This document shows positions 1,177 through 37,252 of a stretch of DNA of 64,000 nucleotides, in pieces. The position numbers were made by a program, and so were the translations under genes. This DNA comes from a virus (Duplodnaviria > Caudoviricetes). Below the pieces are notes generated by a model. The model was not told where the DNA came from. It made no database searches and saw nothing but the letters and a program-made list of their open reading frames with translations. The stretch covers positions 1-64,000 of IMG/VR virus record IMGVR_UViG_2706796244_000001, one strand, 5' to 3'. Position 1 is the stretch's first letter, and every line of letters begins with the position of its first letter.

Positions 1177-1542
1177 ATGTCTTTCGTTTCCCCTGAAAGG
1201 GCTGCACTCATAGCAGCCAATGCTCTCGATAATGCAAAGGCTGCATTTCAAACCATGCCTGCCGATATGCGCAAGGAATTCATGGCCTGGTGCATCAACA
1301 AGGACAAAGAGATGCAGTCTCGCCTGTTCCCTGGTGTCCAGGCGGGATTCAAACTGGTGGCCATGTCTAACTTCTACCGAGATTATTGGGATGAGGAAGA
1401 ACATGCAGCTCGGTGGAATGACCAGGCAGAAGCACAAATACATGCCGACTACCTCAACAATCAGAAGGGCATACACGCAGAAGAACACTGGGTGGTCAAG
1501 CCTGCCAATTACCAACTGAAGAAAGGCAGTGACCAATTGTGA
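1177..1542 (+). CDS. Hypothetical early protein (121 aa)
   Basis: SD AAGGAG, ATG 1177, GTGA overlap with the next gene. Confidence 0.75.
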   Translation: MSFVSPERAALIAANALDNAKAAFQTMPADMRKEFMAWCINKDKEMQSRLFPGVQAGFKLVAMSNFYRDYWDEEEHAARWNDQAEAQIHADYLNNQKGIHAEEHWVVKPANYQLKKGSDQL

Positions 1543-1907
1543 TCTTCGTATTCGGATCCAATCAAGCAGGCATCCACGGTAAGGGTGCAGCATTGCATGC
1601 CCGTAAATACTACGGCGCACTCCAGGGTGTGGGCGAAGGTCCGACAGGAAAAGCCTATGCCATTCCTACAAAGGACAGGTCGATCAAGACCTTGCCTCTG
1701 CATACCATTCAAGAAGGCGTTGATCGCTTCCTTGAATATGCCAAGCCTTATGTGTTTGCTGAATTCCAGGTGACACGTATTGGCTGTGGCCTGGCAGGCT
1801 ACAAGGATGCGGACATTGCACCCATGTTCCTGCATGCACCCAACAACTGCATCTTCGACCGGGCCTGGAAACCATGGCTGGGTGATGCCCGTCGCTACTT
1901 CAATTAG
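1539..1907 (+). CDS. DarG/TARG1-like macrodomain protein (putative ADP-ribose glycohydrolase)
   Basis: NQAGIHGKGAAL, AIPTK and RIGCGLAG correspond to DarG NTVGVMGKGIAL, NFPTK and PLGAGNGG motifs. Confidence 0.7.
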   Translation: MIFVFGSNQAGIHGKGAALHARKYYGALQGVGEGPTGKAYAIPTKDRSIKTLPLHTIQEGVDRFLEYAKPYVFAEFQVTRIGCGLAGYKDADIAPMFLHAPNNCIFDRAWKPWLGDARRYFN

Positions 1908-1915
1908 AACCAAGG

Positions 1916-1942
1916 GGAAAGGGCAGTTGTCCTTTCCTGTTT
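1916..1942 (+). terminator. Probable intrinsic terminator
   Basis: GGAAAGGGC-AGTT-GTCCTTTCC then TGTTT. Confidence 0.5.
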
Positions 1943-3550: not shown

Positions 3551-3756
3551 GCCAACGCATCGTGATTATGTCCACCACGTTCTTTGAACAGGACACAGTG
3601 GAAATGGCCCTTGAAGAAAACGGAACCTATTCCGTGTATATGGGTGCAGCCGGCATGGAAGAAATGAAGATTGCCGATGCATATGAACTCTACAAGGATT
3701 ACGTGAAGATCCAACTGAGAAAGGTATTTGAATGTCTGCTCCAACTCTCGGCGTGA
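3547..3756 (+). CDS. Hypothetical acidic protein (69 aa)
   Basis: ATGA coupling to the upstream gene. Confidence 0.65.
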   Translation: MSQRIVIMSTTFFEQDTVEMALEENGTYSVYMGAAGMEEMKIADAYELYKDYVKIQLRKVFECLLQLSA

Positions 3757-4313
3757 TCGGCACTGCCGGTCGGGACAAGACCAAGCCCATGACAGCCAGG
3801 CTGTTCAACTCCATGTGCCACTACCTGTGGCAGCTGATCCATGACTATGGTGAGCCGGTCAACCTGGTGAGCGGCGGGGCAGCCTGGGCTGATCACACTG
3901 CTGTGGTGGTGTGGCTCAAGCTCATGGAACAGGAACACCCGAACGTGGGCAAGCTCACGCTCCACATGCCTGCTCCCTGGGACTGGGAGCGCAAGCAGTA
4001 CGCCGACTCCAAGTGTGGGGGCGTGAGCAACCACTACTTCGAGCGCATGAACTGGCGCACCCACGAAGATCACCTCGGTGAGCTGGAGTTGGTGCAACGG
4101 TTGGCGGGGTGCGAATGCACCTATGCACCCGCCTCTGCTGGCATGGGCTCCTTCTTCCAGCGCAACAGCCTGGTGGCTCAACAGTCCGACTTCCTACTCG
4201 CCTTCACCTGGGGTGAGTCGGAAGACAAGCCGGCCGACGGCGGCACCATGGACACCTGGAACAAGTGCCGAGGCATCAAGAGCCACGTCCCACTCCACAC
4301 GCTTCAGGCGTAA
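3732..4313 (+). CDS. SLOG superfamily (YspA/DprA-like Rossmannoid) protein (193 aa)
   Basis: LGVIGTAGR, LVSGGAAWAD, RNSLVAQQSDFLLAF and DGGTMDT are typical SLOG motifs. Confidence 0.65.
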   Translation: MSAPTLGVIGTAGRDKTKPMTARLFNSMCHYLWQLIHDYGEPVNLVSGGAAWADHTAVVVWLKLMEQEHPNVGKLTLHMPAPWDWERKQYADSKCGGVSNHYFERMNWRTHEDHLGELELVQRLAGCECTYAPASAGMGSFFQRNSLVAQQSDFLLAFTWGESEDKPADGGTMDTWNKCRGIKSHVPLHTLQA

Positions 4314-6390: not shown

Positions 6391-6607
6391 TCCCTGGCAC
6401 GTCCGTGCCGACAATGCCTACGGTCGATCCATCCTGACGCGCAACAACCACTACCAGGTGGAGCAGAAGGATGTAGGCCGTCATCTCAACAATTTCGGCG
6501 GCTATGGCCGCCCAGGCATCACGCTGCGCCAGCAACATGTGGGCCTGAAGCTGATCCATGCCGAGTACGAAGGGTGGAACAGCTGGTACTGGGACACCCG
6601 ACCATGA
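6374..6607 (+). CDS. Hypothetical protein (77 aa)
   Basis: SD AAGGAG at 6361, GTG start, ATGA overlap downstream. Confidence 0.6.
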   Translation: MLQLSDPWHVRADNAYGRSILTRNNHYQVEQKDVGRHLNNFGGYGRPGITLRQQHVGLKLIHAEYEGWNSWYWDTRP

Positions 6608-7032
6608 GCCAACACCCCATCTCGTTCACCTGGGCCCGCAAGGATCCCAATGGCTACGAATGCAGCAGCAAGGGCGACAAGCGCTTCTCTGCCTTCGGTG
6701 CCTACATGCCTGATGGCCGCACCATCGAAGCCTGGTATCAGTGCGACGTGAAAGGCTACAAGCCTGGCGGCACCGAATGGCAACTGGGCAAGGGTCAGCC
6801 TCCGGCTGTGCCCTACCTGCCTGGCCAGCTGTATCAGGCCTATCTGGGGCTGTGGCGCCTTTGGGCTGTCCGCAACCCACTGCTGATGGTCGAGCTCTAT
6901 GAGCGGGCCAAGAAGCATCGTGTGCTGACCGACATGTTTGCCGCGGCAAACGAGGACAGCATCAACCAAGCACGGGCCCTGGCCCAGATCCTCAACGAAT
7001 GGATCGTCCCTGAAATGAAAGACGGAGTTTGA
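6604..7032 (+). CDS. Divergent NADAR-like protein (142 aa)
   Basis: FSAF..DGRTIEAWYQCDVK..GKG..RNPLL..LTD..NQARALAQILNE follows the order of YbiA/NADAR motifs FSNF..EHYFQAQK..GR..QHAEL..LVE..NRLGYLLMELRE. Confidence 0.5.
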   Translation: MSQHPISFTWARKDPNGYECSSKGDKRFSAFGAYMPDGRTIEAWYQCDVKGYKPGGTEWQLGKGQPPAVPYLPGQLYQAYLGLWRLWAVRNPLLMVELYERAKKHRVLTDMFAAANEDSINQARALAQILNEWIVPEMKDGV

Positions 7033-8517: not shown

Positions 8518-9336
8518 ATGACTATTCAACAAGCCGTAGAGCAACAAATCGAATTGGAAAAGCAATTCAGCAAGAATCAATTGCTGCCACGTATGCGTCA
8601 CTACTTCCTCGTGGAAGCTGAGACGGATTACCCCACCTATATCAAGGAGCACATGGACCTGGACTTCGGTATCGACTTCCTGGTGCAAATGGCTCTGCAT
8701 AAGCGGTGCGATCTTCAGACCATGTATGGCCTGATGCGCCACCACTTCAAGGATGATCCTCAAGCCTGCGTCAATGGCCTGCTGCTTGCAGTGGAAAAGG
8801 ATCTGGCCGACTATGACCTGGATATCAACACGTTCATCGTCAAGTTTGAACTGCCACCTGAATTGCAGGCTGAGCTGGACCTGTTCCAGTATCCGCTGCC
8901 CATGGTGGTCAAGCCAGCCGAAGTGGTCACTAACCGGGACACCGGCTACCTGACTAACAAGGGCTCCATCATCCTGAAGAAGAACCACCACGACAACGAT
9001 GTGTGCCTCGACCATATCAACAGGATGAACAGCATCAAGCTGGCCCTGAATATGGACGTGGTGAAGTTCGTCAGCAACAGCTGGAAGAACCTGGATCGTC
9101 CCAAGCCAGGCGAGCTTGGGGAGGACTTCCAGAAACGCCGCAAGGCATTCGCCAAATACGACAAAACGGCGAAACAGGTGGCTGACATTCTCAATGAGAA
9201 TTCGGACCACTTCTACCTCACCCACAAGTACGACAAGCGGGGTCGAACCTACTGCCAGGGCTACCACATCACCTATCAAGGTAATGACTGGAATAAAGCA
9301 GCAGTGGAGTTCTACGACCGCGAGTACGTCATTTAA
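8518..9336 (+). CDS. Phage RNA polymerase II small subunit (N4 gp15-like, RNAP1)
   Basis: FYLTHKYDKRGRTYCQGYHITYQG matches the T7-like RNAP DxRGRxY motif; adjacent to the second subunit. Confidence 0.92.
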   Translation: MTIQQAVEQQIELEKQFSKNQLLPRMRHYFLVEAETDYPTYIKEHMDLDFGIDFLVQMALHKRCDLQTMYGLMRHHFKDDPQACVNGLLLAVEKDLADYDLDINTFIVKFELPPELQAELDLFQYPLPMVVKPAEVVTNRDTGYLTNKGSIILKKNHHDNDVCLDHINRMNSIKLALNMDVVKFVSNSWKNLDRPKPGELGEDFQKRRKAFAKYDKTAKQVADILNENSDHFYLTHKYDKRGRTYCQGYHITYQGNDWNKAAVEFYDREYVI

Positions 9337-9360
9337 TAACTGAACCAAGAGAGAAGAGAT

Positions 9361-10659
9361 ATGTTCCTGCAACCCACAATTACTGAATTCACCGGCGCTC
9401 AATACCTGGCCATTGATATTGCCAACCATTTCGGTCGGGACAGCAAGGGCAATGAACTGGACAAGACCACCTGGGCATACCGCCTGGATTGGTTCGAGTC
9501 CAACAAGCACCAGCTGGAGGCCATCGCCAACAAGTCGGAGAACGTGGCCTCGTACAGCGCCAGCGTCATGGCCTACCGCGCCATGGAGCGGGGCGAGCCG
9601 ATTGGCCGACCCATCAGCCTGGATGCCACGGCATCGGGCCTGCAGCTGCTGAGCGTGCTGACCGGCGACCGCAAGGGCGCCACCATCTGCAACGTGCTCA
9701 ACGCCTACATCGACAAGCAGGTCGGCGATATCAAGGCCATGGCCGACGATGTGGTCAGCCGCATGGACTCGTACACGGCAGTGCACGAAGAGATGGTTGA
9801 CCAGCTGGCTGCTGCCCTGGCAGACGTGACTCGCGTTACGCGCAAGGATGCCAAGCGTGCGGTGATGACTTCCTTGTACGGCTCCGAGGCCGTGCCCAAG
9901 GAAGTCTTCGGCGAAGGCCTAGCACTCCAGGTCTTCTACCGGGTCATGCAGACCGTGGCGCCGGCAGCATGGGAGCTGAACGAGTCGTTTCTGTCCATGT
10001 GGGATACCGAAGCCACCGAGTACGAATGGATCCTGCCCGACAACTTCCATGTACGCACGAAGGTCATGACCACCGTGACGAACGTGGTCCAGTGGTTCGG
10101 TGCTCCTGTGGAAGTGACACACCAGATCAACGCTCCCAAGGAGAAGGGCCGTTCGCTCGGCGCCAACTGCATCCACTCCGTGGATGGTTTTGTGGTGCGT
10201 GAAATGGTGCGTCGTTGCAGCTACAGCAAGAAGCGTGTCAACGAGGTGCTGCTGGCCCTGGATCGTGCCCGGGAGGAATGGGAAGTAGACGATGAGGATG
10301 CCCGCATGGTGCAGATCCTCATGCAGCGCTACCGCGAGAGCGGCTTCTTGTCGGCTCGAATCCTGGACCACATCACCGTGGACAACGCCATGCTGGTGGA
10401 CAAGCAGGCAGTGCGCGATCTGATCGATGAACTGCCGAGCAAGCCCTTCAAGGTGCTGACGATCCACGACTGCTTCCAGTGCCTGCCCCACTACGGGAAT
10501 GACCTGCGCAAGCAGTACAACCTGATCCTGGCCCACATTGGCGCCAGCGATACGCTGAGCTTCCTGCTCAGCCAGATTCTGAAGACAGAGTTCAAGGTGC
10601 CCCAGCTGGATCCCCAGATGTGGTATGAGATCCTGGAGTCGGAGTACGCACTTAGCTAA
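9361..10659 (+). CDS. Phage RNA polymerase II large subunit (N4 gp16-like, RNAP2)
   Basis: Motif A LDATASGLQ, motif B RKDAKRAVMTSLYGS, motif C TIHDCF. Confidence 0.95.
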   Translation: MFLQPTITEFTGAQYLAIDIANHFGRDSKGNELDKTTWAYRLDWFESNKHQLEAIANKSENVASYSASVMAYRAMERGEPIGRPISLDATASGLQLLSVLTGDRKGATICNVLNAYIDKQVGDIKAMADDVVSRMDSYTAVHEEMVDQLAAALADVTRVTRKDAKRAVMTSLYGSEAVPKEVFGEGLALQVFYRVMQTVAPAAWELNESFLSMWDTEATEYEWILPDNFHVRTKVMTTVTNVVQWFGAPVEVTHQINAPKEKGRSLGANCIHSVDGFVVREMVRRCSYSKKRVNEVLLALDRAREEWEVDDEDARMVQILMQRYRESGFLSARILDHITVDNAMLVDKQAVRDLIDELPSKPFKVLTIHDCFQCLPHYGNDLRKQYNLILAHIGASDTLSFLLSQILKTEFKVPQLDPQMWYEILESEYALS

Positions 10660-36784: not shown

Positions 36785-36963
36785 TGGACGGCCTACTCAA
36801 GCTCATTGGCATCGTGTGCATAGTTATGTGGATCGCCGGTGAGGTGATCCCAGGCTGGCACTGCCACATCATCTTCGGCGGCGATGAGTTCGCTGCTGAA
36901 GCCCATGAAACCATGGCTCGGGAGATCCGGGCCAAACTGAACCAAGGAGAAAGCAATGAATGA
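36784..36963 (+). CDS. Small membrane-anchored protein (59 aa)
   Basis: TGATG coupling; hydrophobic LLKLIGIVCIVMWIAG. Confidence 0.6.
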   Translation: MDGLLKLIGIVCIVMWIAGEVIPGWHCHIIFGGDEFAAEAHETMAREIRAKLNQGESNE

Positions 36964-37252
36964 GCGTCCGAACTGCTTCAGCGAAGCATTGCAGCTGCTG
37001 AAGGACGGCTACTACATGCGCCGCTCGGGCTGGAATGGCTCGGGCATGTGCGTGCAGCTGGTCCGTCCTGGCCAGACGTCTCGCGGCGTGGCCAGTGTGC
37101 GCCACGGCCACGATACCAACCACACCGTGCTGGAGCCCTTCTTCGTGATCGTCAAGTCCCAGGGCAGCGGCGACAACGTGAAGCGCACGGCCAACACCTG
37201 GGTGCCCAGCGTGTCGGATCTGCTCGCCGAGGACTGGGAGGAAGCTCCATGA
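36956..37252 (+). CDS. tad2: DUF2829 / Tad2-like cyclic-nucleotide sponge (anti-Thoeris)
   Basis: FSEALQLLKDG..RRSGWNG.GM...WVPSVSDLLAEDW matches the DUF2829 signature. Confidence 0.8.
   Translation: MNERPNCFSEALQLLKDGYYMRRSGWNGSGMCVQLVRPGQTSRGVASVRHGHDTNHTVLEPFFVIVKSQGSGDNVKRTANTWVPSVSDLLAEDWEEAP

Follow-up and report, generated by a model that had tools for sequence, protein, structure and literature searches.

The characterised members of the macrodomain class that comprises TARG1, DarG and SCO6735 all cleave thymidine-linked ADP-ribose (dT-ADPr); TARG1 has a Lys84/Asp125 dyad, of which DarG keeps only the lysine (K80), and this Lys-only enzyme is specific for DNA and has no activity on proteins (PMC9411070). 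Phages carry related enzymes: gp104 of PhiKZ (AdfM, anti-DarT factor macro) clears DNA of DarT2 marks and relieves the toxicity of DarT2, N23 being the residue that was mutated in that study (PMC13309987), and Tk.4/AdfM of T4 is required on DarTG2 hosts (PMC13716836), whereas against DarTG1 T4 uses an enzyme of the NADAR type, AdfN (PMC11825919). A wider phage network of Macro, NADAR, SLOG and DUF4326 proteins was described by Iyer et al. 2022 (PMC9503650).

The gene considered here belongs to an N4-like podophage. The window, that is, the whole stretch of DNA that was analysed, comprises the initial 64 kb of a virus record that is complete at 73,882 bp and has direct terminal repeats. Its minus strand carries a 3,413-aa ORF for the virion RNA polymerase; the window also contains the two genes of an N4-type RNA polymerase II (RNAPII), and its first 6 kb gave no match in a megablast search of phage records. 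An earlier reading of the macrodomain gene from the DNA letters (hereafter, the sequence-only reading) had proposed that its product is a minimal DarG/TARG1-like macrodomain that erases dT-ADPr and thereby counters DarT2. The features discussed below are the following:

1177..1542, plus strand: upstream ORF, 121 aa, assigned through PHROGs to phrog_19873 (function unknown)
1539..1907, plus strand: minimal macrodomain of the N4 gp14 family, 122 aa (ORF and translation; NF049995; phrog_2072; AF2; structure matches; hhalign)
1915..1938, plus strand: 10-pair hairpin, then GTTTGCTCT, 8 nt 3′ of the macrodomain stop codon; terminator-like
3732..4313, plus strand: stand-alone SLOG (YpsA/DprA-like) protein (Atlas features 0.93 to YpsA clusters; structure TM 0.63-0.68; missed by Pfam)
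6574..7032, plus strand: protein of predicted NADAR fold, 152 aa (AF2 pLDDT 91.3; VIA structure matches; phrog_9995, function unknown)
8518..9336 and 9361..10659, plus strand: the two subunits of N4-type RNAPII (phrog_2166, 3.8e-103; phrog_2051, 1.5e-155; Pfam RNA_pol, 2.5e-11)
36956..37252, plus strand: homologue of the Tad2-like Thoeris anti-defence sponge (PF11195, 1.8e-19)

The macrodomain ORF (1539..1907, plus strand) has a GTG start and a TAG stop and encodes 122 aa. An in-frame stop codon at 1530-1532 makes the GTG at 1539 the sole usual start, and the sequence AAAGG lies about 10 nt 5′ of it. The stop codon of the preceding ORF (1177..1542) and this start codon share the tetranucleotide GTGA, an overlap that suggests translational coupling of the two genes. 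On the other side, the hairpin at 1915..1938 may represent a transcript end or punctuation within the transcript; it is weak evidence of a terminator because, in a consensus scan, hairpin-terminator sites were no commoner in the region than in shuffled sequences. The distance from the left end to the gene is 1.5 kb; the RNAPII genes (8518..10659), which form the downstream limit of the gene block that contains it, follow 7 kb downstream. Given its position 5′ of RNAPII on the same strand, the macrodomain gene is, by synteny, probably expressed early in infection.

The encoded protein is a full member of the family represented by NF049995, phrog_2072 and N4 gp14, which has no assigned function. 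It matches NCBIfam NF049995 with 145 bits against a cut-off of 45 (8.7e-43, profile positions 1-109 of 109) and phrog_2072 (function unknown) at 4.6e-51, and is the orthologue of gp14 of Escherichia coli phage N4 (hhalign 100%, E 4e-51, 50% identity). The family comprises 4,023 clusters at 50% identity (E ≤ 1e-3); a copy is present in 379 of 50,697 phage records, mostly N4-like genomes of 70-77 kb, and species-representative bacterial genomes contain at least 575 stretches with the family. As the sequence-only reading had remarked, such proteins usually bear the label of a hypothetical non-structural protein: NF049995 bears the name 'A1S_2505 family phage non-structural protein' and most phage records read 'hypothetical protein', whereas a few are labelled 'ADP-ribosylglycohydrolase', and 'O-acetyl-ADP-ribose deacetylase 1' is among the names given automatically to Atlas clusters. 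The Pfam search returned no match for the ORF at E ≤ 1, and the Pfam Macro model (PF01661) had none anywhere in the phage genome at the same threshold, the family being too divergent for this model. Similarly, neither PADLOC, including its DarG models, nor phmmer against the PDB gave a match for the protein at E ≤ 10. Literature searches on the A1S_2505 family, on N4-like phages combined with macrodomains and on DarTG combined with Schitoviridae found no study of the gp14 family.

The AF2 model of the protein, built with 59 relatives (pLDDT 97.4, pTM 0.90), is a three-layer α/β/α macrodomain. Foldseek against the PDB placed DarTG of Thermosipho (7omu), TARG1 and DarG at the top ranks, and in a fold search independent of Foldseek the best-scoring entry was Mycobacterium tuberculosis DarG (Z 10.3, rmsd 2.5 over 109 aa), with macrodomains in nearly all of the 40 or so leading rows. 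After re-ranking of the structure matches, human TARG1/OARD1 (PDB 4j5r, 4j5s) came first (Z 11.1, rmsd 2.3 over 108 aa, 18% identity), followed by DarG (5m3e, 5m3i, 7omu; Z 10.2-10.3, rmsd 2.5 over 109 aa, 16-19% identity). Given that alphavirus macrodomains tie with these by Z (~10.5) at an identity of merely 5-8%, the Z-score proves the macro fold and not the class, and the class assignment rests on the motifs, hhalign and the Foldseek rank. The fold claimed from the letters is thus borne out.

The motif strings singled out by the sequence-only reading are all present in the translation (NQAGIHGKGAAL at residues 8-19, YAIPTK at 40-45, EGVDRF at 59-64 and RIGCGLAG at 80-87). Those that it had quoted for DarG were essentially correct, the PDB chain of Thermus aquaticus DarG containing NTVNTVGVMGKGVAL, NFPTKKHWR and PPLGAGNGGL, and that of M. 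tuberculosis DarG NTVNCVGVMGKGIAL, NFPTKKHWR and PPLGVGNGGL. AdfM-type proteins were represented by a profile from a 44-sequence alignment built around PhiKZ gp104, which matches the sequences of DarG crystal structures at 1e-51 to 1e-52, so that the gp104 family is a true DarG-type family. With this family the gp14-family profile aligned at an hhalign probability of 95.7% (E 8.6e-9, 103 columns), with GSN8 on TVN23, PTK45 on PTK78, which corresponds to NFPTK of DarG, and G82-C-G on G124-C-G. With three motifs in register and a fold Z of 10-11, the resemblance to DarG is far above chance. The matches of the gp14-family profile to PDB sequences (E~1 for TARG1, E 0.19 for SCO6735) are not significant alone, with a register that is nevertheless usable: YAIPTK falls on YYLITK and RIGCGLAG on RIGCGLDR of TARG1, in agreement with the AdfM register. 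By residue count, the aligned lysine and aspartate of TARG1 are K84 and D125. The first segment of the SCO6735 match (chain 95-121, score 2.0) was discarded as spurious, being in the wrong part of the protein, and no shared histidine is deduced from it.

The key residues of the protein are N8, H13, G14-x-G16, P43-T44-K45-D46 and G82-C83-G84-L-A86-G87. Within the family, N8, G16, T44 and G82 are each present in 271 of 271 members, H13 in 270/271, A86 in 267/271 and K45 in 261/271. K45 aligns with K78 of AdfM, the lysine of DarG FPTK and K84 of TARG1, and the lysine of the IPTK string accordingly occupies the catalytic-lysine position, as had been claimed for it. The Lys/Asp dyad of the TARG1 type is absent from the family, A86 being aligned with Asp125. 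With K45 retained and the aspartate replaced by alanine, the family thus shows the DarG-like active-site state, Lys being present and Asp absent. Taken together, the AF2 model, the hhalign match to the AdfM family and the motifs in register support the assignment of the protein to the ALC1-like (TARG1/DarG/SCO6735/AdfM) class.

Like AdfM, the gp14 protein is a stand-alone phage macrodomain that lacks a DarT-binding domain, and the Asn, PTK-Lys and GCG-loop motifs follow in the same order in the two families. The gp14 family differs in being ~40 residues shorter, without the N-terminal strand, and in the presence of His13 (GxHG) where AdfM and DarG have Met (GVMG); furthermore, Pfam Macro detects PhiKZ gp104 (4.9e-7) but not the gp14-family protein. 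The hhalign match between the gp14 family and T4 Tk.4 is not significant (E 0.11, 21 columns). DarG has the same fold and, like the gp14 protein, a lysine at the catalytic position but no counterpart of the TARG1 Asp; in contrast to DarG, the gp14 protein has no C-terminal DarT-binding domain, is missed by the DarG models of PADLOC and is encoded by a gene that does not adjoin darT. With TARG1, the best structural match, it shares an identical RIGCGL and an (I/P)TK lysine, and it differs from it in Ala86 and in having no counterpart of the first 27 TARG1 residues. The structural alignments start at residue 28 of TARG1 and residue 15 of DarG, and the gp14 protein accordingly lacks the N-terminal strand. 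The description 'minimal' also holds: the protein consists of the macrodomain only and is ~30-40 residues shorter than DarG, AdfM and TARG1.

The SLOG gene (3732..4313) and the NADAR-fold gene (6574..7032) share the left-end block upstream of RNAPII with the macrodomain gene, whose setting is in this respect centred on ADP-ribose. The best structure matches of the model of the latter product are Geobacter lovleyi NADAR (8bat; Z 9.1, 129 aa aligned), Phytophthora NADAR (8bau; Z 7.9) and YbiA (Z 7.6). Given that the model matches NADAR structures only, the next best Z being 4.2, this ORF, for which the Pfam search found no match, appears to encode a divergent NADAR and is, on the strength of the model, a candidate AdfN-like guanine-ADPr hydrolase. 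The models for DarT, ADPrib_exo_Tox, DUF4326 and Macro had no match in the phage genome; neither had the ART-PolyVal model, a weak result as its control matched nowhere either. A phmmer comparison of the neighbouring ORFs of the window with all retrieved proteins yielded nothing significant among the matches listed. The anti-signalling hotspot of N4-like phages (bioRxiv 2026.06.04.730250), considered as a possible setting for the gene, was rejected: it lies between the primase-polymerase and virion RNA polymerase genes and excludes the macrodomain gene.

In N4, Pseudomonas phage Ebordelon and Klebsiella phage phi1_146050, the gp14 orthologue is located directly upstream of RNAPII. In Ebordelon, a DprA-like SLOG gene lies 1.3 kb upstream of the gp14 orthologue, and in N4 (L086, 3605-4528) the DUF4326 protein gp12 is encoded two genes upstream of gp14, directly before RNAPII. 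Among 65 long relatives, SLOG is the commonest fusion partner (12 proteins: YAcAr in 8, DprA-like in 3, YpsA in 1) and NADAR the second commonest (4 proteins), followed by DUF4326 (3 proteins), with RNase T and an Acb2/Tad1 hairpin in a single protein each and the other partners likewise found once; these fusions represent the same network as that described by Iyer et al. 2022. In the crAss-like phages cr116_1 and cr50_1 (BFVD A0A7M1RZQ7, A0A7M1RUN7), the minimal macrodomain, at 36-37% identity, is found inside polyvalent proteins of ~1,200 aa or more, one of which carries the label ART-PolyVal-like.

Given the near-invariance of the catalytic Asn and Lys, the gp14 protein is probably an active ADP-ribosyl hydrolase of the DarG/AdfM type. 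For its role, the reading that we favour, with a probability of roughly 0.4, is that of an orphan-antitoxin counter-defence against DarT2, with thymidine-linked ADP-ribose on single-stranded DNA as the substrate. Under this scenario, the ADP-ribose moiety would most likely be bound in the cleft between the N8...H13-G-x-G16 loop and the G82-C-G-x-x-G87 loop, and K45, at the end of the PTK strand, together with N8 would release it from the modified nucleobase. The substrate would most likely be placed on single-stranded phage DNA by host toxins of the DarT2 type, so that the gp14 protein would act like AdfM, as an orphan antitoxin against DarTG2, whereas the NADAR-fold gene 5 kb downstream could deal with guanine-linked ADP-ribose (the product of DarT1) as T4 AdfN does. 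Several considerations favour dT-ADPr as the substrate: every characterised member of the class cleaves it (PMC9411070), two phage macrodomains counter DarTG2 (PMC13309987, PMC13716836), the Lys-only active site is the state of the DNA-specific DarG, and the combination of a NADAR-fold protein with a macrodomain in the same phage parallels the AdfN and AdfM pair of T4. The models tried, among which the control for ART-PolyVal matched nowhere, detect neither a DarT nor an ART in the phage, and this was also counted in favour of the anti-DarT2 reading. On the other side stand the failure of the PADLOC DarG and Pfam Macro models to detect the protein, the insignificant match to T4 Tk.4, the invariant H13 in place of the Met of DarG and AdfM, the dominance of SLOG among the fusions, with one relative fused to an Acb2/Tad1 hairpin, and the genomic context in bacteria, where DarT is found in just 2 of 40 genomes carrying the gp14 family, in neither of them inside the 6-kb flanks retrieved around the macrodomain gene, and one copy adjoins NrtR.

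The same fusions point toward nucleotide-signal chemistry and thus bear on the principal alternative, namely, that the substrate is not DNA but low-molecular-weight ADP-ribose derivatives, the macrodomain forming an ADP-ribose clean-up set with the SLOG and NADAR proteins. ADPr-1''-phosphate, O-acyl-ADPr, His-ADPR, immune signals of the cyclic-ADPR type and toxic products of NAD breakdown are all candidates, and such an early set would blunt TIR/Thoeris-like or NADase defences. We consider this alternative somewhat unlikely. It draws, in addition to the prevalence of SLOG and the occurrence of DUF4326 and of the Acb2/Tad1 sponge hairpin among the partners, on the SLOG gene in the block both in this phage and in Ebordelon, on DUF4326 gp12 near gp14 in N4, on the bacterial copy next to NrtR (a Nudix domain combined with an ADPr-sensing regulator domain) and on the Tad2 homologue, which implies that signal-based defences are evidently a selective pressure on this phage; furthermore, Iyer et al. 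2022 (PMC9503650) argued for small derivatives as the substrates of phage Macro/NADAR/SLOG/DUF4326 sets. However, since 2022 ADP-ribosylated DNA has been established as a target of both a phage NADAR (AdfN) and a phage Macro (AdfM) (PMC11825919, PMC13309987). The closest characterised relatives of the gp14 protein, DarG, AdfM and TARG1, act on ADP-ribose linked to macromolecules. To our knowledge, no small-signal substrate is known for an active site of the Lys type.

A role in the removal of ADP-ribose from RNA or protein, for example, uracil-linked marks on RNA or Glu/Asp-linked marks on protein left by other ADP-ribosyltransferase (ART) defences of the host, appears improbable. TARG1 is the best structural match (Z 11.1), macrodomains similar to it are efficient at reversing U-ADPr on RNA (PMC13036486), proteins are further substrates of TARG1 and SCO6735 (PMC9411070), and in two Rhodobacteraceae genomes the gp14-family gene lies between rpoB and rpoC; however, 267 of 271 family members have Ala in place of the dyad aspartate that TARG1 uses on protein substrates, which is the DarG-like state, and DarG has no activity on proteins (PMC9411070). 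As to RNA, we know of no host defence that ADP-ribosylates uracil.

Comparably doubtful is the broader proposal that the minimal macrodomains of the gp14 family form a clade of their own, in which His13 and the SLOG, NADAR and DUF4326 fusions mark a new activity and which, rather than simply copying DarG, would participate in a multi-enzyme pathway dismantling an undescribed ADP-ribose-derived immune signal or nucleic-acid adduct. Finally, many macrodomains are readers only, and crAss-like phages embed this domain in giant polyvalent proteins, one of them ART-PolyVal-like, but the near-invariant catalytic Asn and Lys and the lack of ADPrib_exo_Tox, DarT or (with a control that matched nowhere) ART-PolyVal matches in the phage genome make a non-catalytic binder of ADP-ribose (a reader or sponge), or a regulator of an ADP-ribosyltransferase of the phage itself, very improbable.

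The publication of orphan DarG-like macrodomains of phages (AdfM) dates from 2026, and gp14-family proteins are labelled as ADP-ribosylglycohydrolases in a few records, so the anti-DarT2 idea is less new than the sequence-only reading assumed. The result to retain is that N4 gp14, which is conserved in Schitoviridae, previously had no assigned function and belongs to a very large family missed by Pfam-type libraries, can be placed in the DarG/TARG1/AdfM class. Under the anti-DarT2 reading, the present findings suggest that many N4-like phages, including therapeutic phages of Pseudomonas and Klebsiella, carry a paired NADAR and macrodomain answer to defences of the DarTG type. If the substrate is not DNA, the strong linkage to SLOG, NADAR and DUF4326 would point to an undescribed ADP-ribose pathway.

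The bacterial copies of the gp14 family occur in heterogeneous surroundings: when 92 ORFs adjacent or fused to them at 44 bacterial loci were tallied by Pfam domain, no neighbour recurred. In Ramlibacter monticola (L008, 4989-6339), the gene is immediately downstream of, and overlaps, the gene for an NrtR-type regulator (NUDIX and NrtR winged helix), a neighbour that ties the family to NAD/ADP-ribose metabolism. In the two Rhodobacteraceae (L030, 5959-6372; L041, 5974-6369), the gene between rpoB and rpoC overlaps both of these ORF calls. In Acinetobacter calcoaceticus (L044, 5947-6738), the family member is a 263-aa protein of the core chromosome whose gene diverges from uvrB and precedes a GGDEF gene, and other Acinetobacter (L038, L058) have forms of 275-296 aa with a similar large divergent ORF upstream, the chromosomal position being similar in three species of the calcoaceticus-baumannii group. 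In these Acinetobacter proteins, the macrodomain is N-terminal and is followed by a C-terminal region of ~130 aa.
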